From Haliotis rufescens (lineage: Eukaryota): a DNA stretch of 64,000 nucleotides. The notes under the pieces were generated by a model. The model did not search any database and was not told the DNA's origin. It worked only from the letters and a program-made list of their open reading frames with translations. The translations under genes and the position numbers were made by a program. Numbering within the stretch: the first letter of the stretch is position 1; each line of letters begins with the position of its first letter. Below, one piece after another: positions 5,280-63,570 of this stretch. The stretch covers positions 28,768,001-28,832,000 of the forward strand of contig NW_025964383.1 in assembly GCF_023055435.1 (NCBI RefSeq). Reading direction: 5' to 3'.

Positions 5280-5997
5280 GTTGACTGCGCTAACCTAGCG
5301 CTGTAATGTGCCGACCTCGCTGTGGTGCAACTGAAAGATTGTTGACTGCGCCACGACAGTGCTGTAATGTGTCGACCTCGCTGTGGTGCAACTGAAAGAT
5401 TGCTGACTACGCCAAGACAGTGTTGTAACGTGCCGACCTTGCTGTGGTGCAACTGAAAGATTGCGGTCTACGCCACGACAGTGCTGTAACGTGTCGACCT
5501 CTATGCGGTGCAACTGAAAGATTGCTGACTACGCCACCACAGTGCTGTAACGTTCCGACCTCGCTGTGGTGCAACTGAAAGATTGCTGACTACGCCACGA
5601 CAGTGCTGTAACGTTCCGACCTCGCTGTGGTGCAACTGAAAGATTGCTGACTACGCCACGACAGTGTTGTAACGTGCCGACCTCGCTGTGGTGCAACTGA
5701 AAGATTGCTGACTACGCCAAGACAGTGCTGTAACGTTCCGACCTCGCTGTGGTGCAACTGAGAGAATGCTGACTGCGCCACGACAGTGTTGTAACGTGCC
5801 GACCTTGCTGTGGTGCAACTGAAAGATTGCTGACTACGCCACAACAGTGCTGTAACGTGCCGACCTCGCTGCGGTGCAACTGAAAGATTGCTGTCTACGC
5901 CACGACAGTGCTGTAACGTGCCGACCTCGCTGCGGTGCAACTGAAAGATTGCTGTCTACGCCACGACAGTGCTGTAACGTGCCGACCTCGCTGTGGT
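5280..5997. repeat. Minisatellite, 61-bp unit, ~11.5 copies, just upstream of the esterase first coding exon
   Basis: TGTGGTGCAACTGAAAGATTGCTGACTACGCCACGACAGTGCTGTAACGTGCCGACCTCGC recurs at 5321, 5382, 5443 and onwards. Confidence 0.97.
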
Positions 5998-7945: not shown

Positions 7946-8506
7946 TAGCTTTTCCGAGGCAGCCCGTAATAATAATAACAACTGAGTCAGGATCAGGCAA
8001 ACCAGTTTTTGTCAGCAGGAGCAACGTTCCACGCCATGGAGAATACATGGAGACAACACACACCACCCGAATCCCGTTCAAGTCGACGTTTACGACAAGG
8101 ATAAAGTACTTGGGGTCAACTCTGACACAGAATACTTAAAGACTGTCCCACCGGAACCATTACATATTTTTGTTTAACGTCAAACTGTTAATCGTCTTGG
8201 TCTTTTGAATAGCGAAGAAAGACGAATACGATTCGATCAATCCCACATAAGCAAATATCAAAACAATCAATATGTATGGTCATTTAGGGTCAAGCGCTGT
8301 GTGAAACCTATTAACGTAATATGACCATTTGAGAAAGATAAGTTCCCTGTCTTAAAAGATCAAGTCACTCCCTCTTTGTGTATTGTTATAGGTGATTAGG
8401 TGTACAAGATCATGAAGATATGACTTCTATTTTCTCTCGCCAATTACCAATACAAACATTAGTGTCCACGTATGTTGTGTTGACGAAGGAGTTGGCTTCT
8501 TTGCAA

Positions 8507-32330: not shown

Positions 32331-34001
32331 GACAACAAACAAACAACAGCAATATTCCAGCTATATGACGGCGGTCTGTAAATAATCGAGTCTGACCCAG
32401 ACAATCCATTGATTGACATTATGAGCATCGATCTACGCAATGGCAAACACCGGTACGAAACAGCGGCCCAGGGGGCGCTGCGGAATTTCCGTCCTTGTTG
32501 CTAGCTCCGTATGCTATTGTTTACATACAAAATGCCTTCGCGCTGTTGCGTACCGCAATGTGACAGTCGTTCTGACGGCCACGGTTTTCCTCAAGATCCG
32601 GATATTTGCATAAAATGGCGTGTGGCGATTAGAAGAGAGGATCCGGCATCCAAGAAATTATGGAAACCAAGTCCATACTCAGTGGTTTGTCGTAATCACT
32701 TCCTTGACAGCGACTACAAGCCATCGGACACTGGTAAGCGTCATTAGCAACGAAGTTAGTAACCGAATGAACGGACTGATGTTATTTTTGTCCTTTACCT
32801 CAGAATCTGGTATTGGTGACCTACCAAATGCAATACAATATTCAGTAATTTTGATATGTAAATCAATCATGAATATAGTGTATTAGTCACGGTATGTTTT
32901 TTTTTTATCTGGGTGCACAATATTGGGCTCACCCAAATATTGGCAGAAAAAAATATGTCAGTCGTCCTCTGTGCCGCATTTTACTGAAATAAATAATATT
33001 TTTGGTCCTAATATTAATTATATGTATTGCTATGAAGGACTTTCAGTCAATTCTTTTTTACGTGTTTAATTAAATTTTACATAATTAGAATCTATTTAAA
33101 TTATTCCCACCCTGAAGTTATGCCAGTCTTGAGTAGGCTTATATGCAAAAAACTGTTGAAGTGGATGTTCTATCTATTTAGGAGTAGACCAAATATAGTT
33201 CTATTACTATTATAGAGTTCTATACTATTAAATGAAGTTATCTTAATAATAATAATATTATTTCATTACCGTAAATTTGTCCCAACTAAAATAAACACCT
33301 TTTTTAAAATTCTGCTCAATGTTTTGGAATAATTTGCTTATGTCCTCATTGATAATATTTGTTCATGAATTTACCATGTTTATTGTTATTATGTGAACAA
33401 TAACTAAATTCCTTATTACGATAAAACCTTAATTGACGATATTTTGAAATAATTCTATATATTTTATTTTCAGGAAAGAAAAGACGATTGAAGAGGGGTG
33501 CAATACCAACAGTGAAAGTGAATGAACCAAGGAAACCTAGACACTATGTTATAGATGTGGAAGATGTTCCTGATCTGGGAAGTGAGGTTGAAATTTGTTC
33601 ACCAGGATGCGATGAAATTATTTGTCAGTCATATGCTGTTGATCATACAGAAGATGTGGCCATACAGTGCAGCTTGTTGTTTGAATCGAACTCCAGATTC
33701 TCGATTCATCACATAACTGATAATGACAAAGCAGTTTTGTATTACACTGGTTTTGACAATTATGATCATTTTATGTATTTCTTTCATGTACTTGGCCCCT
33801 CTGTCAATCATCTTTCATATCAGTGTTCTTTGATACCACCAGAAGATCAGCTTTTTATGACTTTGTTAAAATTCAGACAGGCAAGAGATGATTTTGACCT
33901 TTCCATGTTGTTTCATATCAGTGAAAGTACTGTATCAACATTAATTCTCACATGGACAAACTTTTTGTACTTCTGTAACCAGGGTTACCAGGGTTACCGC
34001 A

Positions 34002-34356
34002 CAGGTAGACTGACCAGAATGATGGATGAGGACTGTATAGCAAGTGTTTCTCTGATACATGGGACCTAACAAGCTGAGTTTGGTAAATACCATCACTAAT
34101 GAACGTATAGAGCTACCCAGGAAGGTATCTCTATCATGGGTTAAGGCAGGTAGACTGACCAGAATGATGGATGAGGACTACACAGCAAGTGTTTCTCTGA
34201 TACATGGAAAATAACAAGCCGAGTTTGATAAATACCATCACTAATGAGCGTATAGAGCTACCCAGGAAGGTATCTCTATCATGGGTTAAGGCAGGTAGAC
34301 TGACCAGAATGATGGATGAGGAATACATAGCAATTGTTTCTCTGATACATGGGAAC
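34002..34356. repeat. 145-bp tandem repeat, ~2.4 copies, at the deletion junction of the LTR element
   Basis: CAGGTAGACTGACCAGAATGATGGATGAGG at 34002, 34147 and 34292. Confidence 0.95.
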
Positions 34357-34509
34357 GTACAATATCCCATAGTTGTTAACGAATCGGGTAGACCTTCTGC
34401 TCCACTATCTTGCACCGTCGCTACTCAAACAGCTGCTGTTGGGGATGTAAAATTAATTTATCCGTCAGTTCCGCAGAGACCAGAGAGCATTGAAATGTCA
34501 CAGTTTTAG
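34204..34509 (+). pseudogene. C-terminal remnant of the retroelement's penultimate ORF (possibly env cytoplasmic region)
   Basis: Open frame ending ...RPSAPLSCTVATQT...LIYPSVPQRPESIEMSQF*, placed where env would end; the 5' part is lost in the deletion. Confidence 0.45.
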
Positions 34510-35522
34510 AAATCTAAGTGATCTCAGACATACTAGTGTCCTCTTGTACAAATGTTGATGTTATATTGTATTCAAAGATGTTGATTAGACCAGATGTTGA
34601 TTAGACCAGATGTTGATTATATTATAGATGTTGTATACATGAATATATGGTATACAAATGTGTGTACTTATGAATTGATGATAAAATGTATTGAATTTAT
34701 GAGAGAAGATATATCTGTTATATGTTACAGGTATATTGAATAAGGTGCATTGCATTGCATCGCAGGTTGTTTTGTGATTGTTTAAAAATGTATACTGTAT
34801 TGGTAGATGCAGATGTTATATACAGAAATATTTGTGAGCAATTTTACTGATAGAAATATGTATGTTGTGGCATGTTTGATGTCTTCAATACTTGTTGATG
34901 GACCGTAACCATCAAAAAGGGAACATTGGGTAGTACCCTATATAAATGCATGCTCAGAAATGTAACATTAAGTTGATGTTGTGTTGAAAAAAAAATATAG
35001 TAATCTGTTGTGTGTTTTAAATTGAGGTGTTGATTATGAAGCATGATATAGATACTGTAGCTATTTGCTTTGAAGTAGTTAAAATGATACCTAAACAAAA
35101 TGAATGTTCTCAACGTATATAATATACCGTAGTCTACATACTGGCAAGTTATGCAAAAACCTAATCAGTCTGATTGCAAATGTAAATAGAACTGCTTGGC
35201 CGCAATCAGACTATACGCTTTAAACGTGCCATGATAGTTCACGGGGGTTTGGTGTGGCTAGCTCGTACCCCGAAGTTTAGTGCAATTTGTGATATCGTTT
35301 GTGATTCCAATTATCTCTTTAGAGCATATCGCATACAATTACGCATATTTCACTTATCGCTTATCACGCACTTGCTTGGCTAGTCACCGGTCGTTGACCA
35401 CAGGGGTACACCTCCAATAGTTAGACGTCCGTGTAAGACATTGTTGTGTCCTGCTATATATATCTCAGTATTGTGAGTAATTATATTGTATTTAGTTATC
35501 ATCAATTACCTATAGACTAAAA

Positions 35523-36926
35523 ATGAACAGAAATAGGATTACTGGTGCTTTTAAAAATTCCACCAATCATGGTGAAACTGTCACCATTATGCAGAGACAG
35601 GTGAGGACATGGGCTGAATGGTCCTTGTTCTTTGCACAACTGTTGACTTTAAGTGAAGTTGACATGCCTGAAGTTATTTATTTAGAGGTACCAGAACTGA
35701 TATCTCCATATATTCATGAGGAGATTTTGGCAATCTTCGCTTATGATTTAAAGGAACCTATTTTCGACAACCGGTTGCCCATCGCCACCACTATGAAAAA
35801 TAGACGGTACCGAAAATTTCAAATTCGACCCATAACCATGGTCATATATGGGATGTATTTCGGCTTCTTTGATATTGTTAAGTTGGGATTAGTCGGCATG
35901 TTGACACCGTCTAATGTAGGAGATTCTTTAATCATATGTTATGCTTCACCCTATCGAAAAAAATTGATGCCCTTCTATGCTTACTTGCGAGGAGCTGGGT
36001 ATACTACTGATCAAGTAAATAAGTTTTGTGTATTTGGGGATGAAGGTAATTTAAACATTCAGCTTAGGTTGCGGTGGACACCACTTGCCCACAATGATCA
36101 TTTCCCTTTCCACAATACCTGGAAAAGGTGTGGATATTGCCTGGAGGACTTGCTTGATGTAGACCCTTATGCAAGTAAGGGCTACGAAGTACAGCATTGT
36201 GCGTGGTGTAAACGCATGTACCATGCAACATGTGCCATGCATGTGTTGATTATTTCCAAAAAGGTCAAGTTTGTGTTAAGGGATAGTATTGCTGGCACAT
36301 TAGGCAGGATGACAGAACAGGACAATGGACATTTGTTTGTTGATAGCAATAATGCACTTCGGTGTGAAGTATGTCAGGTTAGGATGGATGCTAATATACG
36401 AGGGGATATATCAGATACTCTGGCACTACCCTATTTTGAGGCCCAAAGAAGGTCCGGGACTACCACCAGCTATGCTTGTGAGGTGGTCCGAAGTTTATTT
36501 CCAGATGGCATGGCATTTGGAATGATAGGGAATGAGTTCCAATTCCTCATTCCAGAACTCCAGATGGACGATCCTCTCGAACATCAGGACTTTTATGCAA
36601 CCATCTCAGAATATCAGTTAGAATTTCCTAACGCTTCGGAAAGTCAAACTTTCCACTATCGGACTTGTAGGGATGAGCAGCCTCATTCTACAAGATGGTG
36701 GAGAGCCGCTTTCCTCGTAAATTTTTCTCATTTGATGGTACATCACTGGCCTTATTCAGACCAGTTTATTCGAGGTGGATTTTTCCCAATAAGAGCAAGT
36801 CCACCTCCTGTTGTGGTCCCTAATATACAGGTAGTTGATAGTGACAGTGACAGCGAAAGTGACGCTTCATCAGACTCAGGTCTACACTTTAGAGTTAACC
36901 CTGACGACTTGGACTGGTTAATCTAG
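35523..36926 (+). CDS. Intact intronless 467-aa accessory ORF of the LTR element with a C4HC3 (PHD/RING-CH-like) finger and an acidic SIM-like C-terminus
   Basis: ATG to TAG, 1404 nt in AT-rich DNA. Pattern CGYC-x19-CAWC-x4-H-x2-C-x43-CEVC; tail IQVVDSDSDSESDASSDS. A TATA-like CTATATATAT lies ~65 bp upstream. Confidence 0.85.
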   Translation: MNRNRITGAFKNSTNHGETVTIMQRQVRTWAEWSLFFAQLLTLSEVDMPEVIYLEVPELISPYIHEEILAIFAYDLKEPIFDNRLPIATTMKNRRYRKFQIRPITMVIYGMYFGFFDIVKLGLVGMLTPSNVGDSLIICYASPYRKKLMPFYAYLRGAGYTTDQVNKFCVFGDEGNLNIQLRLRWTPLAHNDHFPFHNTWKRCGYCLEDLLDVDPYASKGYEVQHCAWCKRMYHATCAMHVLIISKKVKFVLRDSIAGTLGRMTEQDNGHLFVDSNNALRCEVCQVRMDANIRGDISDTLALPYFEAQRRSGTTTSYACEVVRSLFPDGMAFGMIGNEFQFLIPELQMDDPLEHQDFYATISEYQLEFPNASESQTFHYRTCRDEQPHSTRWWRAAFLVNFSHLMVHHWPYSDQFIRGGFFPIRASPPPVVVPNIQVVDSDSDSESDASSDSGLHFRVNPDDLDWLI

Positions 36927-37340
36927 GGAGTACTAAGGATACATGATTAGGACATTGATGATAAGTTGTTAGTTGGTGTTGTGATTTGTTGTGCCTGAAG
37001 AAAAAAAAAAATGCTCATATGTCTATATATATATACCTGAAGTTAAGCGTTGAGAATCTGACTATCTGCATCTACCGAAGAAATTTTTTTTTATAAACCT
37101 GAAACCTTTACAAAGAATGATAATTTGATTATATCTTAATAAGCTTCAGATGTTATTCTCAGATAGGTACAACCCAAGACAGATCCTATCTGAGACATTA
37201 CTTTGTAAAATTTTATTATATTGATTTATCTGGTCCTCAGATACATACATACACATCTTGTTACATATTGATATTGTACCATTGTATTTACATCTTATAT
37301 TTTATTATCATTGGTCAATCGCATGGGACATGCTCTACAA

Positions 37341-37353
37341 CGGGAAGGGCATG
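37341..37353 (+). other. Polypurine tract-like sequence abutting the 3' LTR
   Basis: CGGGAAGGGCATG immediately before TGTAACCAGGGT. Confidence 0.7.
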
Positions 37354-38300
37354 TGTAACCAGGGTATTTTGGAAAAAGGGTTTTTAATATTTACTTAAAA
37401 TGTAGTTTACTAAATTGAGCTTTTGGGTAAAATATGGATGCATATGAGAGAAGTGACCGTACGGGGTGAGGGCATAACCCCCAGGGCAAATGATTATCGA
37501 TTTTACTTCTCTTAGTGATAGAGATAACATTTTCATTAGTACAATGAAATTAGCAGAATCTGGTCTTGCAATATAAGTATCAGAGGGGAAATGAATGGAT
37601 GGAACAAACTGTCAGTCTTGAAATGATCGAATATTTCTCACTACTACTGCTTGATTGGAATGTCTGATTAACATGATTAAGCATCTTTAAGACGCTTTCC
37701 AGTCTGACAGAGTGTTGGATTTTTGTCATAAAGAGGTTGAATTATGAGTATGTTATTAAGAGTTTATCGGTTGACCAATGAGTTAGGAAATTAGCTGAAG
37801 GTTTGGTTTAGAAGGGCTTGATAGAAGAACTGATTGGAACGGAAATTGGGGTTCATATGGAGGGGAGCGTTAGGACTCATTTCACATGACGTCAAATACT
37901 ATTTCGGTGTGGGGAGCAAAAATTATCATGGATAGTATTTAGGGAGTTGTCCGAGAGTGGTGCGGGGAGTCGGGAGGAGACAGCTGAACAGAAAGGTTCA
38001 CTGTGATTTTGGGATCCCGAGTCAGAAAAGAAGTAGAGGTAACGTTCATCAGAAAAACCATCAGGCTCTTCAACCATCATATAGGTATGTGTTGTATTTA
38101 TATCAGGCAACAACAAGAACTAATCTGAGGACCATGTGTACATGTTTATGATTAATTCTATCATAAATAAAAAGAGGCTGGAGCAAACCATCGGACTTGT
38201 GATTTTCAAGAGAGCTACATCATCCCTAGAACCAAGGAGTAGTTGATAGGTAGAAGTGACCATAGGTAGAAGGGTAAAGTACCCGGAACCTAAGGTTACA
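37354..38300 (+). repeat. 3' LTR (947 bp)
   Basis: TGTAACC...GGTTACA inverted termini; first 12 bp identical to 33974-33985; TATA-like TATTTATAT at ~38095 and AATAAA at ~38166. Confidence 0.85.
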
Positions 38301-40499
38301 CTTCCAACTGACTGAGCTAAACATATGGGCATCACATGACACCGTTCAAGATACAATGCCAGAAAACTTCAAGGAGCGCTTCCCATCAACAAGGGTCATT
38401 CTAGATGCAACTGAGACTCTGATTTGTAAGCCAGGCAATGTAGATTACCAGAGGGCCACTTTCTCAAGGTACAAGAACAGGAACACTCTGAAAACTATGA
38501 TTGGTTGTTCTCCTCGAGGTCTTGTTACCTATGTCAGTGACAGTTATGGTGGATCAACAAGTGACAGGCAGATTATTGAGAGGTCAGAGTTGTGCATGCC
38601 AGGTGTGTTTTGTGCAAGAGACAGTATTATGGCGGACAGAGGCATTATGGTGCAGGACATATTTTCATCTTCAGATGTAAAAGTCAACACTCCAACAATG
38701 CTCAAGGGTCGAAGTCAGCTTGAACCCCAAGAGGTAGTCCACGACCGCAGAGTATCATCCAAGAGAATTCATATTGAGCGTGTTATTGGACTTGGCAAAA
38801 CTTACAAAATTCTTAAGAGGGAGCTTCATCCATCAAAAGTTCCACTAGGCTCTAGAATTGTTCGAATTTGCTATATGTTGTCAAACTTTCGCCCAAGCAT
38901 TGTCAACCGACTTGCATGAACAAATGGCCATTCTAAACATACTTCACACATTCATGTATGTTTGTATGTCCTAGTGTGAGGTCTGTTCATAGCATTGAAA
39001 GTACAACAGTTTACTGCTAGTAGACAGGTGTGATTGTCTACTGTGACTGTATGGTGGGTATTAGACACGGCTCACTGCTGTATGATTACTGTTTACTCTG
39101 TTCCTTAATGATCTTGTTCAACTAATACAATCCGGAAACTGCAAAGGTATGTTTGTGAATGAGTTAGTTGATAAAATTAGAACATTGATGTTTGCTGATG
39201 GCATTGTGAATGCAAGTGACGCTATTGTCAAATTGCAGAAATCAGATGTAGCAAGCTTTTGTGGCAAATATGTTATGAATGTAAATTTAGATGAAACAAT
39301 TATGATTGTATTTTGCAGAGGAGGACTTTTCAAACAAATTGAAAAATGGTGGTTCAAAGGTGAAATACTTTAAATTGTATCAGCATACAAGTGCTTGTGG
39401 ATATTTGACACCCCAAAGTCTTAATGGGGTTTGGTTAGAAATACATTAGCACAACAACCTGTATAGCCATGAATATTTTGCTCACATTTATATATACTGC
39501 AAACATATCTTTAAGAGTTGTGTTTATTGTTGACAGAATGATTGTGCCAGTCATTGGTTATGGACCAGGTATGTGGGGTTATTCACAAGTTCAGACAGTT
39601 TAAGTGTACACATGAGATCATTGTCTGTTAACACAAGTACAGATAACGCGGTTGTTATAGTACAAGGATGTTTGTGGATTATGCACACAAAGTAAGCATA
39701 TTTATGTAGAAATGTTTATAGATTGTGGATCAATTTTTAGCGACAAACATGTAACCGTACTTTGGGCTGAATTCTGAATGCAAACTTAAACTTGAAAGTA
39801 CAACTGGAATGTGTGAGAAATGTTCAAATATAACAACTTTATTGTGTTTTAACAATTGAAATGATGAATATATGTACATAGCACTGTACCCATGAAGGGC
39901 CATGATATTACATACCGGGTAACGGTAATGAAAAAATACCATTGAATACATAATGAAAAAATACCATTGAATGTCTCACATTGTTGGTTGATCTGTGCTT
40001 AGGATCTCTCTCTCTTACCACTTTAACAATGAATGCAATAGTACAACACCATCACACGGTTGTCAGACAGACATTCAGTCATGTAATTTCCCTGCAAAGG
40101 AGCTCCACCACATTCCCAAGGTCAGTGTTCGAAATAGACATCAGTCCCTATACCCATAGATGACAGATTTGTTCAAAGATGTTTTACAAGCTGATAATTT
40201 CCTTGATAAATGTATCACCATCTATAACCACTGAGTCTCTGGGAACTCGGGTGTGATAGCAGTCATAGCTTCTGGATGACTGGTTGTATTTTGTAATTTT
40301 ATATTGCAAGAGTATATCTCACTGCTTCAGCTAACATGTTTGGGCCTACAGTTTCTCCATTAGGCCTACCCCTTATTCCAATATACTTCAGGGTTACAAG
40401 TGATATAAAAGAATCAAACAGTGTCAAAAGCTTCAGAAAAGTACACAAAAAGACAGTAGTATATGCATATATATTGAACTGGTTGGGTCTGAATACAGT

Positions 40500-40733
40500 A
40501 TCATGGTGTAACATTTATACTAAGTTTTCCATATAATAATTAGATCCACATCAAGTGCTTTTATGAGTTACCATGGTGTAATATTTATATATGCATTTTA
40601 CCTGATGATAAGTATTACTTGCTAAACTATTATATGAAATGATATATAAATATTACACCATGGTAACTCATAAAAGCACTTGATGTGGATCTAATTATTA
40701 TAGGATAACTTAGTATAAATGTTACACCATGAT
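40500..40733. repeat. Near-perfect inverted repeat (~93-bp arms, ~49-bp spacer) between the convergent transposon genes
   Basis: 40500-40592 is the reverse complement of 40642-40733 with few mismatches. Confidence 0.95.
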
Positions 40734-41061
40734 TTACACCATGATAACAGCCTGGGCCTTGTCAATTATGTTATAATCTTCATCAAACTGCTGTAGGCTA
40801 CAGCTAAGAATAGAAGTAAGTACTTTACACATGGTGTCAATCAGGGATATACCTAGCGGTACTCATTTGTATCATTCTCATCACCAGATTTTAATAGTTG
40901 AAAAGAAGAAATTTATATTCCTTAACTGTGAAAAGTCACTGCTTTCAAATAATTTTTGAAAAGTGAGGCAAAAGTAAGTTTCAAAAGACTCTTAGTACTT
41001 TTTAGATACACAGTCTTCACATGGATGTATTAATCCCCAAAAGGATGTCTGTTCATGAATC

Positions 41062-44000
41062 TTAACAAATGCAGTGAGTAGCAATGTAAGGCTTGAGGAA
41101 AGACTCAAAGAATAATGAGAGTCTGGGAATCAAACTTCCTGTACAGTATTCCTCATTGAGTGATATTTTCTGAACAAAGAAGTCTTTAAACGTACAAACA
41201 GCAAATAAGCAGTATTTTCGCTTTGATAGATACATCTGACCCTGCACTTGAAAGTAGTAATTACTGTTTTCTTTCAGTTGCATGAGGCCATTTCTCTTAC
41301 AAAGATAAGGAAAGAGTTTCCCAGGAGCAATGACCTCATTTCTGGCACTGTAAGGACATTTAACCTCAACAATGGTGTTAGAATCAATGACACCGTCTGG
41401 TGTTGCTGCAAGGAAAGGGAGTTCAGAGTCGACAAACATTCCACAACTATGAACATGAACATTACAGGCTATTTCAAGTTTGGCAATAGCTTTGGGTTCC
41501 TGCTGTAACCCATGCCTCACAGAGTTACAAACAAGTTTTCTTCCAGAGACAATTTGTTCACATAATTTAGTTTTGTTTCTCCTTGTAGTACATTTGCAAA
41601 TTGTCCCAAACTGAGATGCGGTAAGCCTCCATCTCCTCTCCTCATGCCACAAGCTACACTTGGCCTGCTTTCTTGTCTTTGACTCTAAGTCTGCAGCCTG
41701 GTCATCTGTAATCTGTCAAAGATAGACAGAATAAAAATAAATAAACAAAAACTTATCAATAAAATTCTTGAAACTCCTTTACAAATCAGAACAAAACAAT
41801 TCAATCAGATAACATGGCTAAAGCAGTTTAACCATATCGTATCTAGCTCCAAGGGACCAGAAGAAATCCATTTGCATGCAATTCAACCTAACCATCAACT
41901 ACTACACTGCAACGTCTGAAGATATTGTGTCTTCTGCAGTAAGAAATGAACTAACCATGAAATGAATAATAGCAGGCATTTTTTTAGAAAAAAGTGAATT
42001 ATTTATTTGAATGCAATAAGCAGTAGCTATTGAAAGCCTAAAATATAATAACTTAATATAGTGATTTGTGAGAATGCATAAAACTCAGGATTGAAGATTT
42101 CTTCATTACGGAAAACATGAGTGTAAAATACCTTCAAGGCTCTCTCCACCCAGTATTCTGTGAAGGGCTTGTCCAAATAGTCATGATCTCTTACTGCAGA
42201 TGACAGACTGGCTCTTTCAAACAGGTATCTGATCGTGATATCCTTAGATGCTGAAGAGCAGTAGTTGATGGTGATGTTTCGCACATGGTCCCTGTAAGAT
42301 GCACTATTTCTGTATTTTGCCGGTCTTGGGTCATCAAACATGGTTGGTCGCTTCGCCCCACACTTGAATGAGTCTGCTTTCTTCGGTGAATCTATTAAGA
42401 GGCAAAAAAAAAAAAGAGGAATAATTTTTTGGCTGAAAATATATTACTAATACTGGGACACTTCAGTATATAATATTTGAATGTAGAAACAGCAAATAAG
42501 CAGTATTTTCTCTTTGATAAATACAGGAAGTGAAATTGTCATAATTTCAGACAATTCATAATTTGGGGTATATGCCAAACCTGTCACGGGGGAAACAATT
42601 GAAAGGGTGATCACACACTGCAGAAATAGCTTGTGAGGCTTTTAAGTAGTTATGGCTAAGCTATACGAGCAATGCCTACTGAATACATTAGCAGAAAGAT
42701 CAGTTTCATATGTCATGGAATAATTAATCACTCTGTATATTTAATTCTAATAAATATGAACATATAACCAAGGGGTACTTAATTTATTTTAATGTCTGCA
42801 GCTGAACAGAATATCTATTTTTTCAAACCATATAAAAATTTCCTCATTTTAAGAAAACAATTGACACAAAAAAACTTGATAATTAATTCATTCTAACATG
42901 CTGTATAAGCACTTTGAATACCAATATATTTACTACACAGTAAACATGGTAAGGTACCTGAATATTCCTTTTGTGGCCTGTGGAATGTCTGCAGTTTGTC
43001 TGTGCAGGATCGCCTCACAGCAATCACACCTGTAGACTTGAACTGTGACAACATGAGGAGGACAGAAGCGAGGTGTTTGCAGGTTCCATGGGGGCCTTTA
43101 CCAGCTGGGCACTCACAGTGTGTGTTAACCACTTCACCACATTCTGCTATTATGATGCGAAGACTGTAGGATACCTAAGTCAAGGAAATCAAAACTTGTA
43201 ATACAGAGTTATCTAAGTATCATCATGATAACATATAATGAATTATTCCTGCAAGTGACAATGTTTGGTATAACTGACACATTATTTACACAAAGGTGAA
43301 ATATTTCTTATTACAGACCTAAATGTACAATCATGAATGGCAAAACTGTGAATGATTACTCACTAATTTAAAATCATTAATCACTGACAATTCAATATGT
43401 GGTTGAGAATGGAACTTATGACCAATCTGTTTCTAAGGTAACAAACCTTTTTCTTCATAGCAGCACTGACTAGACCACTGAAGTAGGCATGGTGATGAAT
43501 GACAACACTGCAAGCCAGGACATGATTGGATTCCAAAAGTTGATGTCCCTTCTCAATAGCCTTCAAATCTCCAGTCTGAAAGCAAATAATTTCATTTTGC
43601 TAATTTCAGTATCTCATTTATTCAAAAGATTTCTCATGTATGTTTCACAGGATATGTATTATCAAACACACCTGTTAATGTTAGTGTTACTATTGGTAAT
43701 AATTTCAATAAATTTGAGTAACGCATAGAAATATATTGCACACTTACCTCTTCATTATCTACAGCTAACCGGTACCTAAAATACGCCTCGACATCCGAAG
43801 AGGCCAAGGGCGGTAAGCTGTCTTTGTGTAGTGGCATCAGTTGCTTGAAACCTGTGACTGGCCATGATTCAAATCGGATAGGCTCAGGTAACTTAATGTC
43901 ATCTTCTGAGTGGCAGAAGTTATTATTTCTGTCATAGGACTCCAATCTGAAACAAATTTTACAATACACCTGTATATATTTGGAGAACATTTTTTTATTT

Positions 44001-44894
44001 TAAAATACTTTAAATTCAGTCGGGGTGGGGTGGGGTGGGGTGGGGGAAACCTATGAAGCTGACCTATGCATTGGATTACTATTAATAAAAATATTTTGTG
44101 CAACCAGACCCTTGGAACAGAAGTCATGTAAGAAGGTATTTCCATTTTCAAAGTACTGCAACTATATCTTAGATTTAGAATGAAAATGTCACAGGTCATG
44201 TCAAACCCCAGAAATAAGAACATTAGACAATGCCCAAAATAACTTGAATGAGGGTTATTTTGCCAGGACTGTAGATTGTAAAAATAACTTTACCCATGCA
44301 GTCTCATATGGTACTTGTGATACCTTAGCTGTGCTAGGAAATCCTAACTGAAGCTTTCTTCTCATTTTTTTCACTCGAGATATTAATTAAAGTATCAAAA
44401 GGTTAATATATACGGTACTATTTATTTTGATATATTTTAGTCTGATGCATTGAGTCAATGTATACACCACTGCCGGTATATGGTCTTTGCTTTTGCATAC
44501 ATGTAGGCCTAGTCACTATGGCCCCAGTTCATGCTCTGCAGACGACTGACATAGCATAATGGGTAAAATATATTTAAGCATGCTTTATTTACGATTACAC
44601 CAACATGCACGGGTTTTCATTCAATAAAATGAAATTTGCACACCCCTGACGTTTCCTTTATCGATAACAACAATTTTCATTCAGTTCGGATTTCCCGCGG
44701 TAATCTCGAGTCGTACTAGTGGAACAAATCAAAGACTGTTCGAAGATTCAAAGCAAACTGACACAGAATTGGCAAGTCTATGGTACAATTACATACCTTT
44801 CAATCAAATCGATCTTCTTCCCGCGTGTAGTTGCTCCACGGCATCGCAACTCTGTCTTCAACTTCTCAACTGTCAGACCGCTGTAGTGCGACAT
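41062..44894 (-). CDS. Transposon second gene: SAP + SWIM zinc finger + YqaJ (lambda-exonuclease-like) protein, 6 exons, ~517 aa, intact
   Basis: Exons 44797-44894, 43748-43946, 43447-43575, 42958-43174, 42132-42391 and 41062-41712 (1554 nt, phases consistent). SAP LTVEKLKTELRCRGATTRGKKIDLIER; SWIM CECPAG..TCKH; YqaJ W..ERR.RLTASQFG, AATPDG, EVKCP, QVQGQM. Confidence 0.93.
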
Positions 44895-45230
44895 GTTTAC
44901 ATTAGCAACACTTCCGGGACGGAAATTCCGACGCGCCACCTGGCGGATTAGTGTACCGGTGTTTGCCATTGGGATACGATGACATTCTCAAACCAGGTCA
45001 GCGAGCCTGACCACCCGATCCCGTTAGTCGCCTCTTACGACAAGCTAGTCGCCGTTCATGGCAAGCATGGATTGCCTATTCTACCCCAGATCTTCACGGG
45101 TCAGATCAAAGAAGTATATTGTAGAGTCTTGTATTAATGTATATTCATAAACTGAAAACGAAAGGTTCATTCGTAAATCGTAAATGTCATTCGTTTGTTA
45201 AAAAATCATAAATAATCAAGAATGTTATTA

Positions 45231-47299: not shown

Positions 47300-49613
47300 C
47301 ATACCGTGGCATAGTGTATTTACTAACTTCAACTGTCAGCAGCCCTCTTACTGTGGCATAATGTATTTACTAACTTCAACAATCAAGAGCCCTCTTACTA
47401 TGGCATTATGTATTTACTTACTTCAACAATCAACAGCCCTCTTACTGTGGCATTATGTATTTACTATCTTCAACAATCAAGAGCCCTCTTACTGTGGCAT
47501 AATGTATTTACTTACTTCAACAATCAACAGCCCTCTTACTGTGGCATAATGTATTTACTTACTTCAACAATCAACAGCCCTCTTACTGTGGCATTATGTA
47601 TTTACTAACTTCAACAATCAAGAGCCCTCTTACTGTGGCATAATGTATTTACTTACTTCAACAATCAACAGCCCTCTTACTGTGGCATTATGTATTTACT
47701 AACTTCAACTATCAAGAGCCGTCTTACTGTGTCATAATGTATTTACTTACTTCAACAATCAACAGCCCTCTTACTATGGTATGGTGTATTTATTAACTTC
47801 AACAATCAACAGCCCTCTTACTGTGGCATAATGTATTTATTAACTTCAACAATCAACAGCCCTCTTACTGTGGCATAATGTATTTACTTACTTCAACAAT
47901 CAACAGCCCTCTTACTATGGCATGGTGTATTTATTAACTTCAACAATCAACAGCCCTCTTACTGTGGCATAATGTATTTATTAACTTCATCAATCAACAG
48001 CCCTCTTACTGTGGCATAATGTATTTATGAACTTCAACTATCAAGAGCCATCTTACTGTGGCATAATGTATTTATTAACTTCAACAATCAACAGCCCTCA
48101 TTATTGTGGCATAATGTATTTACTAACTTCAACTATCAAGAGCCCTCTTACTGTGGCATAATGTATTTACTTACTTCAACAATCAACAGCCCTCTTACTG
48201 TGGCATTATGTATTTACTAACTTCAACTATCAAGAGCCGTCTTACTGTGTCATAATGTATTTACTAACTTCAACAATCAACAGCCCTCTTACTATGGCAT
48301 AATGTATTTATTAACTTCAACAATCAACAGCCCTCTTACTGTGGCATAATGTATTTATTAACTTCAACAATCAACAGCCCCCTTACTGTGGCATAATGTA
48401 TTTACTTACTTCAACAATCAACAGCCCTCTTACTATGGCATGGTGTATTTATTAACTTCAACAATCAACAGCCCTCTTACTGTGGCATAATGTATTTATT
48501 AACTTCATCAATCAACAGCCATCTTACTGTGGCATAATGTATTTATGAACTTCAACTATCAAGAGCCCTCTTACTGTGGCATAATGTATTTACTTACTTC
48601 AACAATCAACAGCCCTCTTACTATGGCATGGTGTATTTATTAACTTCAACAATCAACAGCCCTCTTACTGTGGCATAATGTATTTATTAACTTCATCAAT
48701 CAACAGCCCTCTTACTGTGGCATAATGTATTTATGAACTTCAACTATCAAGAGCCATCTTACTGTGGCATAATGTATTTATTAACTTCAACAATCAACAG
48801 CCCTCATTATTGTGGCATAATGTATTTACTAACTTCAACTATCAAGAGCCCTCTTACTGTGGCATAATGTATTTACTTACTTCAACAATCAACAGCCCTC
48901 TTACTGTGGCATTATGTATTTACTAACTTCAACTATCAAGAGCCGTCTTACTGTGTCATAATGTATTTACTTACTTCAACAATCAACAGCCTTCTTACTA
49001 TGGCATGGTGTATTTATTAACTTCAACAATCAACAGCCCTTTTACTGTGGCATAATGTATTTATTAACTTCAACAATCAACAGCCCCCTTACTGTGGCAT
49101 AATGTATTTACTTACTTCAACAATCAACAGCCCTCTTACTGTGGCATGGTGTATTTATTAACTTCAACAATCAACAGCCCTCTTACTGTGGCATAATGTA
49201 TTTATTAACTTCATCAATCAACAGTTCTCATTATTGTGGCATAATGTATTTACTAACTTCAACTATCAAGAGCCCTCTTACTGTGGCATAATGTATTTAC
49301 TTACTTCAACAATCAACAGCCCTCTTACTATGGCATGGTGTATTTATTAACTTCAACTATCAAGAGCCCTCTTACTGTCGCATAATGTATTTACTAACTT
49401 CAACAATCAACAGCCCTCTTATTGTGGCATAATGTATTTATTAACTTCAACAATCAACAGCCCTCTTACTGTGGCATAATGTATTTGTGAACTTCAACTA
49501 TCAAGAGCCGTCTTACTGTGGCATAATGTATTTACTAACTTCAACAATCAAGAGCCCTCTTACTGTGGCATAATGTATTTACTTACTTCAACTATCAACA
49601 GCCCTCTTACTGT
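47300..49613. repeat. Satellite/minisatellite, 47-bp unit, ~49 copies
   Basis: GCCCTCTTACTGTGGCATAATGTATTTACTAACTTCAACAATCAACA repeated. Confidence 0.98.
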
Positions 49614-50370
49614 GATAGACAGACAGGCAGACAGACAGACTCACGCGTTCATGCACATGCAGTTGAAAACAACCGTCACGATGAAATCGGTAGACTACAA
49701 GAAAGGGTAGATCTAGGTCACATCGTAGACTTAAATTTATGTTTCAACCACAAGTCACTCATTACATCCTTGGCTCATGGAGTTCAGAGAAATAATATAC
49801 TGCAGGGGGGGGGGGCGGTCGTCGCAGTAATTCCCATCAGCTCTTCAAGCGGACTGCTGTCCTTCCTTAAGCATAAGCAATTACCTATGCACATTGTAAA
49901 TGAATGAAACTCAGATATGATTATATATAGACACAGAAAAGCTTCAAAGGGTCGATGTTTAGTAAATCCAACTAATTTCTTACCTGCAATACTTGAAACA
50001 TTATCGAGTATGTACTTCACTGATGGTTTCATGGAAATGCCCCTCTTATACTTCCATATCTGTTCTGAATCCTACCTTAGACATATGTGTTTGCATAACA
50101 TTCGTGTAGTATTGGCCCAGTTTAGATGTAGTTATCAAATATTTAACCAAGCAGGACGACATGGGGATGCATATAAGGAATGCATAAGACGGATATTCAC
50201 ATAATTTAGAAGTTATAAGTAGTATTTCCTTCAGTAATATTGCCCGTAATCTGATACACTCACTCGTAATTATATCGCGAAATACTACTTCGTTAACGCC
50301 ATCACGTGTTCATTTATACTTAACATTAATGTCTACAGGCCAACTTGGTAAACAATGACTTGTATATTAT

Positions 50371-51221: not shown

Positions 51222-51949
51222 CTACTCAAAACAAGATAATATCAAAATGGAACCCAGGACAATGCTTCATTTCTAGTCTCAGAAATGAAAATGTTTTACA
51301 GAAAAAACAATATAATAAATAGGAGCCCAGAGACTCTTCATTAGTCTAATATAGACTTGAATGGGCTGTCGCTCACTTCAGCTGTAACGACCAGTGGACA
51401 GCACAAGATTAACTGATAAAAACAACCCAGAATCTCGCTTGTGGGCCCTACAGAATTAGACAGAACCGAGAGCTCAGACAAATTATTCCAGACTTGAGTT
51501 GGATCTAGTTCTTATTTTTTCTCTAGGGCCTGGGAGGCAGGTTAGGTTAACGCTATAAGATCTGGACAAGCAGTCATACATACAAATGCAAATACACTTT
51601 CCCTCAAGAATGCGACGAACTCTATTTCACCTCCTTCCCCTGCTTTGCTGACAAAAAAAAGATGAACATTATATCATATAAGTGTCACACATTATAAAAT
51701 GCAAGTATGACAATGTCACACCATATTGCTTATGAGAAACACAAGTATGCATAAAAACATGAACTGATTACGACGGTAGACTCTTAATGTTTTTATTTAA
51801 TACCACCCACCAACCCGCACATTTATTCATTTATCCTTCTAAAATAGCTTGTAGTTTGTGTTTAGGATTTAAACACATTTTCTACAGTGAATGACACCAC
51901 GTGTTTGGGTATTACTCAATGCCTCGTAACCTTGTTTCATTGTACACCC

Positions 51950-52692
51950 TCATTAACCGCAACATCAACCTCGGTACAGTTAGAACCTGACCTACAGCAC
52001 ACTCACACTGCCCTCCACAGCATAACATCCTCATCAACCGCAACATCAACCTCGGCCCTTTTAGACCCTGGTCTTCAGAACACTCACCCTTCCTCCACAA
52101 TAGAACATCCACATCAACCGCAACATCAACCTTGGTCCTGTTAGACCCTCACCTCAGCATACTCACCCGGCCCTCCACAACAGAGCATCCTCATCAACCG
52201 CAACATCAACCTTGGTCCTGTTAGACCCTCACCTCAGCATACTCACCCGGCCCTCCACAACAGAGCATCCTCATCAACCGCAACATCAACCTTGGTCCTG
52301 TTAGACCCTCACCTCAGCATACTCACCCGGCCCTCCACAACAGAGCATCCTCATCAACCGCAACATCAACCTTGGTCCTGTTAGACCCTCACCTCAGCAT
52401 ACTCACCCGGCCCTCCACAACAGAGCATCCTCATCAACCGCAACATCAACCTTGGTCCTGTTAGACCCTCACCTCAGCATACTCACCCGGCCCTCCACAA
52501 CAGAGCATCCTCATCAACCGCAACATCAACCTTGGTCCTGTTAGACCCTCACCTCAGCATACTCACCCGGCCCTCCACAACAGAGCATCCTCATCAACCG
52601 CAACATCAACCTTGGTCCTGTTAGACCCTCACCTCAGCACACCCACCCTGCCTCCACAACAGAACATCCTCATCAACCGCAACATCAACCTT
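51950..52692. repeat. Minisatellite, 80-bp unit, ~9 copies (central ~6 identical)
   Basis: TCATCAACCGCAACATCAACCTTGGTCCTGTTAGACCCTCACCTCAGCATACTCACCCGGCCCTCCACAACAGAGCATCC. Confidence 0.98.
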
Positions 52693-59689: not shown

Positions 59690-60257
59690 ATTATGGCACT
59701 GTTTGATTTCCAGAATGTACTCCCTCCACCAGGCCTGTCATAGGATCAAGTCTGTATGTCATGATAGGCACTGTTTGATTCCTAGAAGTGCTCCCTCCAC
59801 CAGACCTGTCCTAGGATTAAGTCTGTATGTTATGTTATGGCTCTGTTTGATTCCCAGAATGTACTCCCTACATCAGATCTGTCATGGGATCAAGTCGGTA
59901 TGTTATGTTATGGCACTGTTTGATTCCCAGAATGTACTCCCTTCATCAGGCCTGTCATAAGATCAAGTCTGTATGTTATGTTATGGCACTGTTTGATTCC
60001 CAGAATGTACTCCCTCCACCAGGCCTGTCATAGGATCAAGTCTGTGTGTTATGTTATGTTATGTTATGGCACTGTTTGATTCCCAGAATGTACTCCCTCC
60101 ACCAGATCTGTCATGGGATCAAGTCTGTATGTTATGTTATGGCACTGTTTGATTCCCAGAATGTACTCCCTCCAACAGACCTGTCATAGGATCAAGTCTG
60201 TATGTTATGTTATGACACTGTTTGATTCCCAGAATGTACTCCCTCCAACAGACCTGT
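59690..60257. repeat. Minisatellite, ~72-73-bp unit, ~8 copies, overlapping the 3' end of the receptor CDS
   Basis: GTTTGATT recurs at about 59701, 59773, 59845, 59918, 59991, 60074, 60147 and 60220. Confidence 0.95.
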
Positions 60258-63118
60258 TCTTGTGTCGTCAGGATCGAGTTGCAGAACGATAATGGCGTAT
60301 GTGAGCAATGTGCCCAACACCTGTAAAACAACAAACATAAATGTACTCCCTGTCGAAAGTTAACATTATATCTAATTAATGATCTGGTACGACGTGTAGC
60401 AATAGTGTCTCCTAATTCTATTTTGACACATGCTGAGGATTGATACAAATACAACTATCCTGGCAGACATATAGAACAAACGAGTGAGTGAGCGAGTTGG
60501 CTTCACCGCCGCTTTTAGCAACACTTCAGTCATATTATGGTGTGTCAGATTGATGTCGAGGACCGAAGTGATTGGTCAATCAGAGGTATCAAATCACAAT
60601 AAACCCCCTCAGATTGAAACAGCCGATCTGAACATCCATATATTTTACTATCACAGAAAAAGGGTCTGTAAAGGATTAACACATTAAAACGTGTTGGTAT
60701 GATTTACTCTCATTTCCTTCATTTAATTAAAAACACTTACAAAATTATATTTAGGAATGACAAAGTTAGGAATTGAGATGGGATTGTCACTCCTTCCTAC
60801 CTGTTCGGGTGTTAATGATGTACTCACCGTTAATATTGCCGATGAGTCCACGGTAAACAGGCCATGCACTGTGAATCCAATGACAGGTCTTATGAGGCGG
60901 GTCGTAAATAGATTGACCTGCAAGTAAATGATTGATTTCACCAACAGTGAAACTTCAGGAACTGTACAAGATAATGGATATCGTTGGGTTTTCTCATTTT
61001 GAAACAACAGGGAATGTATCATGAAGATATTTGCAATGGGGGACAACATTACTAAATACTTACAGAATGCAACGTGGTGCCGGACAGTGTCGTAAGATCA
61101 CTATGAAGCAGGTCGTCCACACAACCGTGAGCCTGAAACAATGGTACAGGGTTTAATGTTTGGAGATCTGAACCTGCGAGAAGGCCTAGAACTCTATGAT
61201 CGGTGTTTGTTTGTTTGTTGTTTAACGCCACATTCAGCAACATTTCAGCTATATAACGACTGCCTGTAAAACAATGAGTCTTCATCAGGCAATTCAGTGA
61301 TTGATATCAAGAGCATCGATCCAGGCAACTGGGATACGATGACATGCATCAACCATGTCAGCGAGCCTGATCACCCGATTCCGTAAGTCGCCTCTTACGA
61401 CAAGCATGGGTTGCTGAAGACCTATTCTACCCCGGATCTTTACGTGTCTGGAACTCCATGAAATTATTCAGACAGGCCTCATTTACTTTTGCAATGTACT
61501 TTGTTTAATTTGTATGTTGAATGCCGACTTGGAGTCAATAATATGTATCCATTACACGAAATTGAACATGCCCTTGTTGTTATCAAATAATGTCACTATG
61601 TGACAGAACATGAATTCAGTGTATTCGTTTAAAAACGCGTTTTTTTAAACACTCCTCTAAAACAGGAAACCTTCACATTCGTTCAATTGCCTTAACACCA
61701 CAGTCGCACAATAATATAAGTGTAATATAACCAAATTAATTAAAATATGTACTGTTTACCGCCAAATGTACAAGCAATATCCTGGAGGGTAGTGTATCGA
61801 TAGTGTATGCGTCTGTGATCATCACTGATCGTCACACGGTCGGTTTCAGTTATTTAGTGAGTGAGTGAGTTGGGTTTAACGCCGCTTTTAACAGCACTCC
61901 AGTTATATCACGGCGTGTCACCTTAATGTTGGAGGAAAGCCCGAAGTGGTGCAGGTCTCAGACGTTTACCACTTCGGTGAAACCCACGAGCACGGGTACG
62001 GTGCTGACAAACCTAGAAACATAATCGGGGCGAACCGGGATTCGAACCCACAATCATAGGTTTCTGGTGTGCCAAAGGGACGCAACTCTGCATAGCGAAT
62101 CGCGGCGCCTTAGACGAGTGGGCCACCCGTGCCCCCTTCAACTGACACAGAAGCACTGATGTTTTGTACACAGTATATACAGACTGCTAATGGGCGTACT
62201 TACCATTGAACTTATATAGGTCCCGATTAATAAAGTCGAGAACAAGAACACGATTCCAACACCAGTCACGAAAACAGACGACATGGTTTCGTCTAGAGTC
62301 AACGTTCCTCTGATCAGTCCAAATAGTACAAAACACAGAATAGGAATCTGTGTTGTGAAGCAGGCGAACATGACATGTGTAACAATCTTGTTACCAGTCT
62401 CCAGTACTCCACAGAGAAGGATGTGACGTTTCCGTAATGATTCACATTGTTCGTTCACCGTCTTGGACTCAACCATTTCTTTCACCAGCTGGTTGACATG
62501 AGAAAATTCCTTACCAAGAAATCGAGCAAGAGCAATAAAAAATAGATATGGTCCAAATATACCAAGGTTTCTGTAAGCGTGAAATAATGTGGAGAATAAA
62601 ATGCCTACGACATAACTAAAACCCTCAAGTCTGTAAAATGGATAATATGCTCTATTTACCCAGCTGCTATTTAATGGTTGAAGCAAAGCCCACATCAGAC
62701 AGAAAGCAGTGAATATAGCTAGAACTGTTATAATAAACATTCTCTTGAATAAGACTGCTGCCTTTTGCAAATTAACTGCACTGCCATAGATCATGTAGAA
62801 AGATGACAACTCGTTCACAAAAGCATCAATGTATTTCGAGAATGCAATGGCAATAGCTGGTACTTGGTAAGCGCTCCATGCAAAATTCAGCCAGAAAGTC
62901 AATGATACTGTAAAACTTCCGGTCAAGCCTTTTTCCTCCGTGAATATTAAGCTGTATCCAGTAAGAAAACCCAGGATGACCGAAGACACAAATACACTAT
63001 ACAGGCACTGAGCCCATCGCCACCGCCTCTTACTCTCAAGTGAAACATACATGCCTCCTACTTTCAGAAACCATTTGAAATGACCCATGCAAATCTCAAC
63101 GTCAGCAGTGACGGACAT
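60210..63118 (-). CDS. Gustatory receptor-like (Grl / 7tm_7) seven-TM chemoreceptor, 4 exons, ~394 aa
   Basis: Exons 62204-63118, 61064-61132, 60828-60917 and 60210-60320. Multiple TM segments, R..H..LC after TM4, GFTVHGLFTVD, and the TM7 signature GTLLTYAIIVLQ. Three C-terminal phase-0 introns. The start codon is inferred. Confidence 0.92.
61857..62136 (-). mobile_element. tRNA-derived SINE (family V) in intron 1 of the receptor gene; partial copies at ~7610-7713 and ~54930-55330
   Basis: Head GGGGCACGGGTGGCCCACTCGTCTAAGGCG...GGTTCGAATCCCGG, a V-domain-like GTGGGTTTC...CTTTCCTCC body, and an (ACTC)n tail. Confidence 0.75.
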
Positions 63119-63189
63119 TGTCAAGCGATGTGTACGTCCTGCTAGTCTCTGAATGTTTGTCTGCTCTTTATCAACCGGTAGAATGTGGT

Positions 63190-63570
63190 CTGTTTCCAAC
63201 GCCGTCACTAAACAGTAGATCAATGTTACCACTGTAGCTCACCCGGTATATTCCAACGCCTTCACGAAAGAGTAGACCTGTAACACCACCACTGAAGCTC
63301 ACCTGGTATATTCCAACGCCTTCACGAAAGAGTAGACCTGTAACACCACCACTGAAGCTCACCTGGCATATTCCAACGCCTTCACGAAAGAGTAGACCTG
63401 TAACACCACCAATGAAGCTCACCTGGTATATTCCAACGCCTTCACGAAAGAGTAGACCTGTAACACCACCACTGAAGCTCACCTGGTATATTCCAACGCC
63501 TTCACGAAAGAGTAGACCTGTAACACCACCACTGAAGCTCACCTGGTATATTCCAACGCTTTCACGAAAA
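63190..63570. repeat. Minisatellite, 60-bp unit, ~6 copies, immediately 5' of the receptor ORF
   Basis: ACCTGGTATATTCCAACGCCTTCACGAAAGAGTAGACCTGTAACACCACCACTGAAGCTC repeated line by line. Confidence 0.97.

Follow-up and report, generated by a model that had tools for sequence, protein, structure and literature searches.

An ISL2EU Transposon of Haliotis rufescens Interrupted by an LTR-Like Insert with an Orphan Zinc-Finger Gene

A stretch of 64,000 nt of the Haliotis rufescens genome (GCF_023055435.1, contig NW_025964383.1, positions 28,768,001–28,832,000, forward strand), below called the window, contains a DNA transposon of the ISL2EU group with its transposase gene split by a long insert. 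The locus raises the question of what this insert is and of what the interrupted transposon may still do. Three nested mobile elements are probably present: an ISL2EU element within a host repeat, an insert of long terminal repeat (LTR) type, and a miniature inverted-repeat transposable element (MITE) of 248 bp. The ISL2EU element type and the question about its YqaJ protein are already in print; the nested insert matters more, being less ordinary: it carries an intact gene of 467 aa without homologs, apparently under antisense small-RNA pressure. All coordinates are positions in the window (Table 1). Articles are cited by PMC number, and statements about them refer to the part of their text that was available. 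Four of the 24 sequencing runs listed were compared with the window, namely three contig runs (X1, X15, and X18) and one small-RNA run (X21).

Structure and Classification of the ISL2EU Element

The ISL2EU element (32442–44967) was 12,526 bp in length, or 8,195 bp after subtraction of positions 33974–38304. Similarity of its terminal inverted repeats (TIRs) beyond the perfect 15 bp was imperfect, extending over about 57 bp in all at 80.7%. An AT target-site duplication (TSD) was found at both ends of the element, inside the sequence A-AT-T. A probe joining flank to flank with a single AT gave 20 alignments within the window; two of them were the flanks themselves, and the remaining ones were mostly copies of the host repeat spanning the junction. 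Since host-repeat copies cross the AT junction, both the empty site and the AT TSD were confirmed. The perfect TIRs, the AT duplication, and the size of about 8.2 kb, all given in an earlier note on this DNA, were thus borne out, the duplication by both flanks as well as by the empty-site copies in the window. The same note described the element as inactivated by a single insertion, which is correct for the coding sequence but not for the element overall, because the MITE (40499–40746) is also inside it.

The transposase gene consisted of two exons separated by a GT–AG intron of 740 bp. With positions 33974–38304 removed (32532–32733, 33474–33973, and 38305–38919), it encoded the clean frame of 438 aa that had been proposed, with a single terminal stop; retaining both copies of CTTC in the model gave 11 stops. 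The insert broke the frame after codon 234. The THAP, HTH_Tnp_4, and DDE_Tnp_4 domains were all above Pfam cutoffs, and the spacing D268(22)K291(29)D321(23)D345(18)P364(23)R388(3)E392 agreed with the PHIS motif D(19–29)K(29)D(18–40)D(11–19)P(18–28)R(3)E (PMC4122938). The transposase homologs listed numbered 120, at 57–70% identity; of the 100 columns showing at least 90% conservation among them, 7 differed in this transposase, none of them catalytic.

The element shares with ISL2EU of the PHIS superfamily (PMC4482050, PMC4122938, PMC9179366) the A-AT-T TSD, short TIRs starting with GG (6–259 bp in this group, usually with GG at the start), a transposase of THAP, helix-turn-helix (HTH), and DDE parts, a second open reading frame (ORF2) for a YqaJ protein, the animal host, and the DDE spacing. 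Its assignment to ISL2EU in the earlier note is upheld by these features, and it is almost certainly a new member of this known group, the family having already been published. Compared with the ISL2EU average of about 4.8 kb, the abalone element is larger (about 8.2 kb), owing to six introns, the MITE, and a stretch resembling a reverse transcriptase (RT) remnant; the abalone copy also differs in being interrupted. SAP and SWIM domains, present in the abalone ORF2, are not named for ISL2EU in the available text of PMC4482050, PMC4122938, and PMC9179366; UniRef labels a Mytilus ORF2 homolog “SWIM-type domain-containing”.

The Insert in the Transposase Gene

The insert had TG..CA termini and a 4-bp TSD, as in Gypsy-type LTR elements; LTR elements in general have TG..CA ends with a TSD of 4–6 bp (PMC12440569). 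Its first 12 nt recurred once in the window, at 37354 (two matches, 0.27 expected), the first position of an LTR-like segment preceded by a putative polypurine tract (PPT). The AATAAA at 38166, located 130 nt before the end of the insert, was the sole plus-strand copy in the insert. Depth of X1 contigs was 838–2,192 per bin over 36974–38275, reaching about 4,000 at 37377, and 75–163 in the bins of the long open reading frame (ORF); X15 and X18 followed the same order, with the LTR-like segment above the ORF.

The small-RNA run X21 contributed 98 reads. Apart from a depth of 0.24 in the first bin, part of which is host repeat, they were confined to positions 35238–38275 of the insert and were almost all antisense; no small RNAs were found on the ISL2EU genes in this run. 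Of the seven start piles, three were displayed, with 10, 10, and 30 molecules, and each of them began with U. A 5′ U is characteristic of piRNAs. These data suggest that the insert family draws antisense piRNA-like small RNAs; the count of 98 reads from one run weighs against this reading.

The orphan ORF of the insert was intact from ATG to stop, and none of 300 dinucleotide shuffles gave an open frame longer than 167 codons. Its product carries a pattern that fits a C4HC3 (PHD-like) zinc finger (C203, C206, C226, C229, H234, C237, C281, C284) or, as H190 permits, a C1-like one. Pfam matches were below cutoff (C1_1, 6e-5; zf-HC5HC2H_2, 0.021), and an Atlas query with part of the protein gave RING-like leads only (0.84–0.90). 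No homologs were found among 3,450 candidates or 1.84 billion protein representatives, nor in metagenome, viral, or GTDB contigs; PHROGs and NCBIfam gave no match, a whole-protein Atlas query gave no usable match, and all matches to PDB sequences had E above 0.2. Single-sequence AlphaFold models had a mean predicted local distance difference test (pLDDT) of 33 and 35. No clear membrane helix was present, with no 19-residue window exceeding a hydropathy of 1.6. The variants displayed, two silent and one non-silent (n = 3), were too few to judge selection.

A second open frame of 101 aa (34204–34509), lying over the left-end tandem repeats of the insert, ends with PSAP and a YPxV motif, which we take to resemble retroviral late domains. 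It was rejected as a gene, its length not being above chance (158 of 300 shuffles reached 101 codons).

Origin of the Insert

An LTR origin of the insert is likely. In the architecture that we prefer, the insert would be a Gypsy-type LTR retrotransposon reduced by internal deletion: gag-pol and almost the entire 5′ LTR would have been lost, leaving 12 nt of the 5′ LTR, the 3′ internal part with a zinc-finger accessory gene, the purine tract, and the full 947-bp 3′ LTR. An LTR-type integrase would have placed this 4,327-bp element in the transposase gene at a later time, making the 4-bp TSD. The closest likeness was found in Juno and Vesta, Gypsy/Metaviridae elements of bdelloid rotifers, which have a non-env extra ORF before the 3′ LTR and antisense pi-like RNAs (PMC5408684). 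The insert shares with them the TG..CA ends, the 4-bp TSD, an ORF that closely precedes a purine run and the putative 3′ LTR, and the antisense small RNAs. Unlike them, it lacks gag and pol, its 5′ LTR is limited to 12 nt, and its ORF, with a putative PHD/C1-like zinc finger, is not env, GDSL, or DEDDy.

Several observations weigh against the deleted Gypsy-type architecture, which in exactly this form has a somewhat less than even chance. The left part of the insert showed no similarity to 37354–38300 beyond the 12 nt, so that no paired direct LTRs were found; gag, pol, and integrase were absent from the insert, with the 467-aa orphan as its only long ORF; and no sequence like a primer-binding site (PBS) was found behind its left end. 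The purine run was only 8 nt long and set 4 nt from the start of the LTR-like segment. The depth step at 37354 was only bracketed, the implied depth over 36974–37353 still being about 370–410, and contig depth is not copy number. Because paired LTRs and gag-pol were missing, the insert is filed here as LTR-like and not as a member of Gypsy.

The same absence of PBS, gag, and pol would be explained if the whole 4.3 kb were one giant solo LTR of an undescribed molluscan retroelement, with a U3 that grew upstream and took in the ORF, an old purine tract, and an LTR start, and that now holds a fast-evolving PHD/C1-like accessory gene. The clean ends and the intact 4-bp TSD agree with this, the left-end tandem repeats recall U3 enhancer repeats, and the left part was present in other samples at about the depth of the ORF. 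A gene within an LTR has a precedent in the sag gene of the mouse mammary tumor virus (MMTV). A giant solo LTR, however, requires a duplicated terminus upstream, and the far greater abundance of the 947-bp part points to the short LTR as the common form. Such an LTR was also not described in the literature searched, with subscription papers and Repbase outside its scope. We therefore consider the giant solo LTR unlikely.

Quite improbable is a third origin, in which a separate 3.4-kb element (33986–37353) entered a 947-bp solo LTR near its start, or in which the whole insert belongs to the non-autonomous DNA elements of Ginger-like type. In its favor, the two copies of the 12-bp direct repeat border 33986–37353 exactly and would be a TSD, and contig depth differs between this part and the LTR-like part. 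Against it, the duplication would have to coincide with the first base of the LTR, neither a poly(A) tail nor a TIR is present in the inner part, and the purine run has no explanation. Ginger (PMC2836005) shares the TGTNR termini, the 4-bp TSD, and a PHD in one Ginger1 transposase, but has TIRs of 40–270 bp and CCGG/CCGT or RTATAY targets, in contrast to the 7-bp inverted repeat, the CTTC target, and the lack of integrase in the insert. KolobokP and Troyka, like Ginger, were rejected as identities of the insert on termini, TSD, and coding. A pattern of 19–20 nt from the start of the LTR-like segment matched a metagenome contig and a viral contig, both of which were the same 23%-GC giant-virus sequence; beyond this pattern they showed no real similarity, and the match was dismissed as chance. 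The giant-virus contig bears a cluster of ORFs that by eye resemble genes for glycosyltransferases and sugar synthesis.

Returning to the LTR-type insert, we think it probable that an abalone LTR element carries an orphan accessory gene in the place of ORF3, whether the deleted Gypsy-type or the giant solo LTR architecture applies. No PHD-like accessory ORF in or near an invertebrate LTR was found in the literature searched, including the available part of PMC13524379, with supplements, subscription papers, and Repbase excluded. The orphan gene points to a class of accessory genes that annotation pipelines overlook in repeats. If the gene sits inside the LTR, this LTR architecture is one without description for invertebrates in the literature searched and would be an invertebrate parallel to the LTR-borne accessory genes of complex retroviruses; its product would plausibly be a chromatin reader or a ubiquitin-ligase-like counter-silencing factor, spread by every solo LTR.

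Age of the ISL2EU Family and State of This Copy

The family is young and multi-site. The YqaJ exon of ORF2 had 99% and 97% identity with two H. rufescens RefSeq proteins, ORF2 sharing 469 of 474 aligned residues with XP_048244174.1 and 435 of 448 with XP_046331249.2; both are on other contigs, which gives at least three annotated loci of this ISL2EU family in H. rufescens. In each of the three contig runs, one contig bridged the insertion point with the insert lacking (joint 33968→38300) and the transposase uninterrupted. The X1 pieces listed differed from the window by 15 letters and 14 gap letters in 1,353, by 1 in 371, and by 2 in 373; one older copy had 24 differences in 263. One X15 contig continued beyond the left TIR with 527 non-matching letters, indicating another ISL2EU insertion site. 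The young age stated in the earlier note is thus supported by the near-identical RefSeq loci and the uninterrupted contig copies. No filled insert junction was found among the joints (15 of 399) and loose ends (18 of 1,044) listed, and the insert looks private to this copy or polymorphic.

At codons 121, 137, and 140, in a poorly conserved linker, the transposase of this copy was unlike all three contig runs. Contigs of these runs were 12–25 letters longer over 33068–33968, with 12 of these letters within 33407–33738; this copy therefore probably has a short deletion (about 12 nt, somewhere in 33407–33738). The proposal that an active element could be rebuilt directly from this copy is weakened: judging from the sequences, it would be neither the best template nor a needed one, because it deviates at three codons and the transposase was uninterrupted in 3/3 contig runs. 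The interrupted copy would be non-autonomous. With its ends and ORF2 intact, it could in principle be moved in trans by transposases of other copies and supply ORF2.

Structure and Predicted Role of ORF2

ORF2, convergent with the transposase gene, was modeled with six exons and five GT–AG introns and encoded 517 aa with a single terminal stop. The intact six-exon SAP-SWIM-YqaJ gene described earlier was recovered in this model, SAP and YqaJ being above the Pfam cutoff and SWIM below it (E 0.0034 and 0.027). The product was identical to XP_048246348.1 over 517/517 residues and retained every one of the 36 positions that at least 85% of 29 homologs have in common. Some points limit this evidence: XP_048246348.1, possibly the protein of this same locus, confirms the gene model but is not counted as a further copy; none of the runs listed for this stretch was on record as RNA; no spliced read or contig was found among the 15 of 399 joints listed; and runs X15 and X18, which carry introns and behave like DNA, are uninformative on splicing. 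A 50-bp piece of exon 6 (41185–41234) recurred at 90% identity in intron 4 (42476–42525).

A profile of ORF2, built from 22 sequences picked from 31 hits plus P0152 with near-identical and long ones omitted, matched lambda-type exonucleases exclusively in the PDB (seven sequences), with E 7e-13 for lambda exonuclease and 2.9e-24 for 3SYY. ORF2 residues W323, R327, S334, E373, D407, E417, and K419 correspond to W24, R28, S35, E85, D119, E129, and K131 of lambda exonuclease, and D407, E417, and K419 were invariant across the 22 aligned sequences (24–53% identity to ORF2). The catalytic and 5′-phosphate-pocket positions of lambda and Laribacter LHK exonucleases (1AVQ, 3SYY) and mimivirus R354 (5YET) all aligned with ORF2. 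Compared with these enzymes, ORF2 has about 300 extra N-terminal residues (SAP, SWIM), and no annealase partner is encoded in the element.

The earlier note regarded the role of YqaJ in transposition as unresolved, and the available text of PMC4482050 agrees in calling the function of the second ORF unknown; no ISL2EU assay was found among the literature matches listed. Lambda exonuclease requires a 5′-phosphate, bound by R28, and degrades the 5′ strand from a DNA end (PMC11611040). Spy, the sister group of ISL2EU, needs no more than its single ORF to transpose in human cells (PMC11304231), which indicates that this class of transposase can cut both strands alone. With the lambda catalytic and 5′-phosphate-pocket residues kept in ORF2, these facts favor resection over second-strand cutting or a scaffold role, and the chances appear evenly balanced that ORF2 resects the break at the donor site, driving templated repair and copy gain. 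The transposase would bind the TIRs, excise the element, and integrate it with a 2-bp stagger, an order of events for which the anatomy is visible here and the chemistry is taken from knowledge of the family. SAP and SWIM would tether ORF2, as a 5′→3′ exonuclease of lambda type, and the broken donor site would be resected and then repaired by copying the sister chromatid or homolog, converting cut-and-paste into copy gain. It counts against this proposal that the putative nuclease role is read from residue conservation alone.

Alternatively, ORF2 may be indispensable for excision by cutting the second (5′) strand at both ends of the transposon, the task of TnsA in Tn7. Its PD-(D/E)xK residues are intact, SAP and SWIM could serve as tethers, and transposition of Harbinger needs both ORFs (PMC9179366); we nevertheless consider this doubtful, as the pocket equivalent to W24/R28/S35 implies a free 5′-phosphorylated end and not an internal cut, and as Spy transposes with its single ORF. 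The parallel with Harbinger could also mean that ORF2 is chiefly a DNA-binding or scaffold partner, like the Harbinger Myb protein, with catalysis dispensable, but the invariance of D407, E417, and K419 across such divergent sequences makes this improbable. Resection by ORF2 thus remains the preferred reading, and a young, multi-copy ISL2EU with uninterrupted members offers a usable system for the question of the YqaJ nuclease.

Table 1. Features of the nested elements and their surroundings in the window.
Feature	Position	Strand	Remarks
Host repeat, 5′ half	32347–32441	+	High-copy, like a short interspersed element (SINE); ends in left AT TSD (32440–32441); empty-site copies in the window
Left TIR	32442–32456	+	Perfect over 15 bp, beginning with GG; weaker subterminal match up to about 32498
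Transposase exon 1, THAP	32532–32733	+	PF05485, E 1.8e-11
Transposase exon 2 before insert, linker and HTH_Tnp_4	33474–33973	+	PF13613, E 1.9e-13; ends with first CTTC (33970–33973)
Insert, LTR-retroelement-like	33974–38300	+	4,327 bp; TGTAACC..GGTTACA ends
Tandem repeat at left end of insert	34002–34352	+	145-bp unit, 2.4 copies, 94% matches
Orphan ORF	35523–36926	+	467 aa, intact ATG to stop; putative zinc finger (C4HC3 or C1-like) at residues 190–284, acidic C-terminal tail
Purine run, putative PPT	37342–37349	+	GGGAAGGG; 4 nt before LTR-like segment
LTR-like segment	37354–38300	+	947 bp; TGACGTCA at 37887, AATAAA at 38166
Second CTTC copy, TSD of insert	38301–38304	+	4 bp; first copy 33970–33973
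Transposase exon 2, catalytic DDE part and stop	38305–38919	+	PF13359, E 5.4e-33
Degenerate RT-remnant-like stretch	39086–39373	+	To 39500 in wider view; also in other samples
MITE-like hairpin	40499–40746		248 bp, very high copy; ACAG at 40495–40498 and 40747–40750
ORF2 exon 6, YqaJ/lambda-exonuclease domain and stop	41062–41712	−	Pfam, profile search
ORF2 exon 5	42132–42391	−	Splice model
ORF2 exon 4, SWIM-like CxC..CxH	42958–43174	−	Pfam and splice model
ORF2 exon 3	43447–43575	−	Splice model
ORF2 exon 2	43748–43946	−	Splice model
ORF2 exon 1, SAP	44797–44894	−	Pfam and splice model
Right TIR	44953–44967	−	Followed by AT TSD (44968–44969)
Host repeat, 3′ half	44968–45103	+	Downstream of right TIR

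Other Features of the Window

The MITE lies between the 3′ ends of the transposase gene and ORF2. Its hairpin had a z value of −21 and an X1 depth of 9,678; an Rfam match to MIR7723 at 40495–40740 (68.5 bits, cutoff 200) was simply this hairpin. Over 40012–40445, X1 depth was 885 compared with about 100–190 elsewhere in ISL2EU, which indicates that part of the intergenic region is common to another repeat. The stretch at 39086–39373, which by eye we take to resemble a remnant of a non-LTR reverse transcriptase, had no match in Pfam, PDB, or NCBIfam.

No tRNA genes were found in the window, and a bacterial promoter scan, irrelevant to this DNA, gave nothing. Two runs of about 150 N preceded the element, at around 1.6 kb and 18 kb of the window, and none was inside it. 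At 8391–28980, a multi-exon gene region was present as a tandem of three copies, with blocks 72–98% identical and no Pfam or NCBIfam match for the exons. An exon of an alpha/beta-hydrolase gene (Abhydrolase_3, hormone-sensitive-lipase type) was found at 137–889 on the minus strand. An open frame of 366 codons at 62141–63238, also on the minus strand, had a sub-cutoff match to Promethin (E 2e-5) and adjoined a 60-bp tandem repeat. Minisatellites were present at 2536–3226 (23 bp), 5300–5997 (61 bp), 47302–49614 (47 bp), 51948–52692 (80 bp), and 59691–60257 (73 bp).

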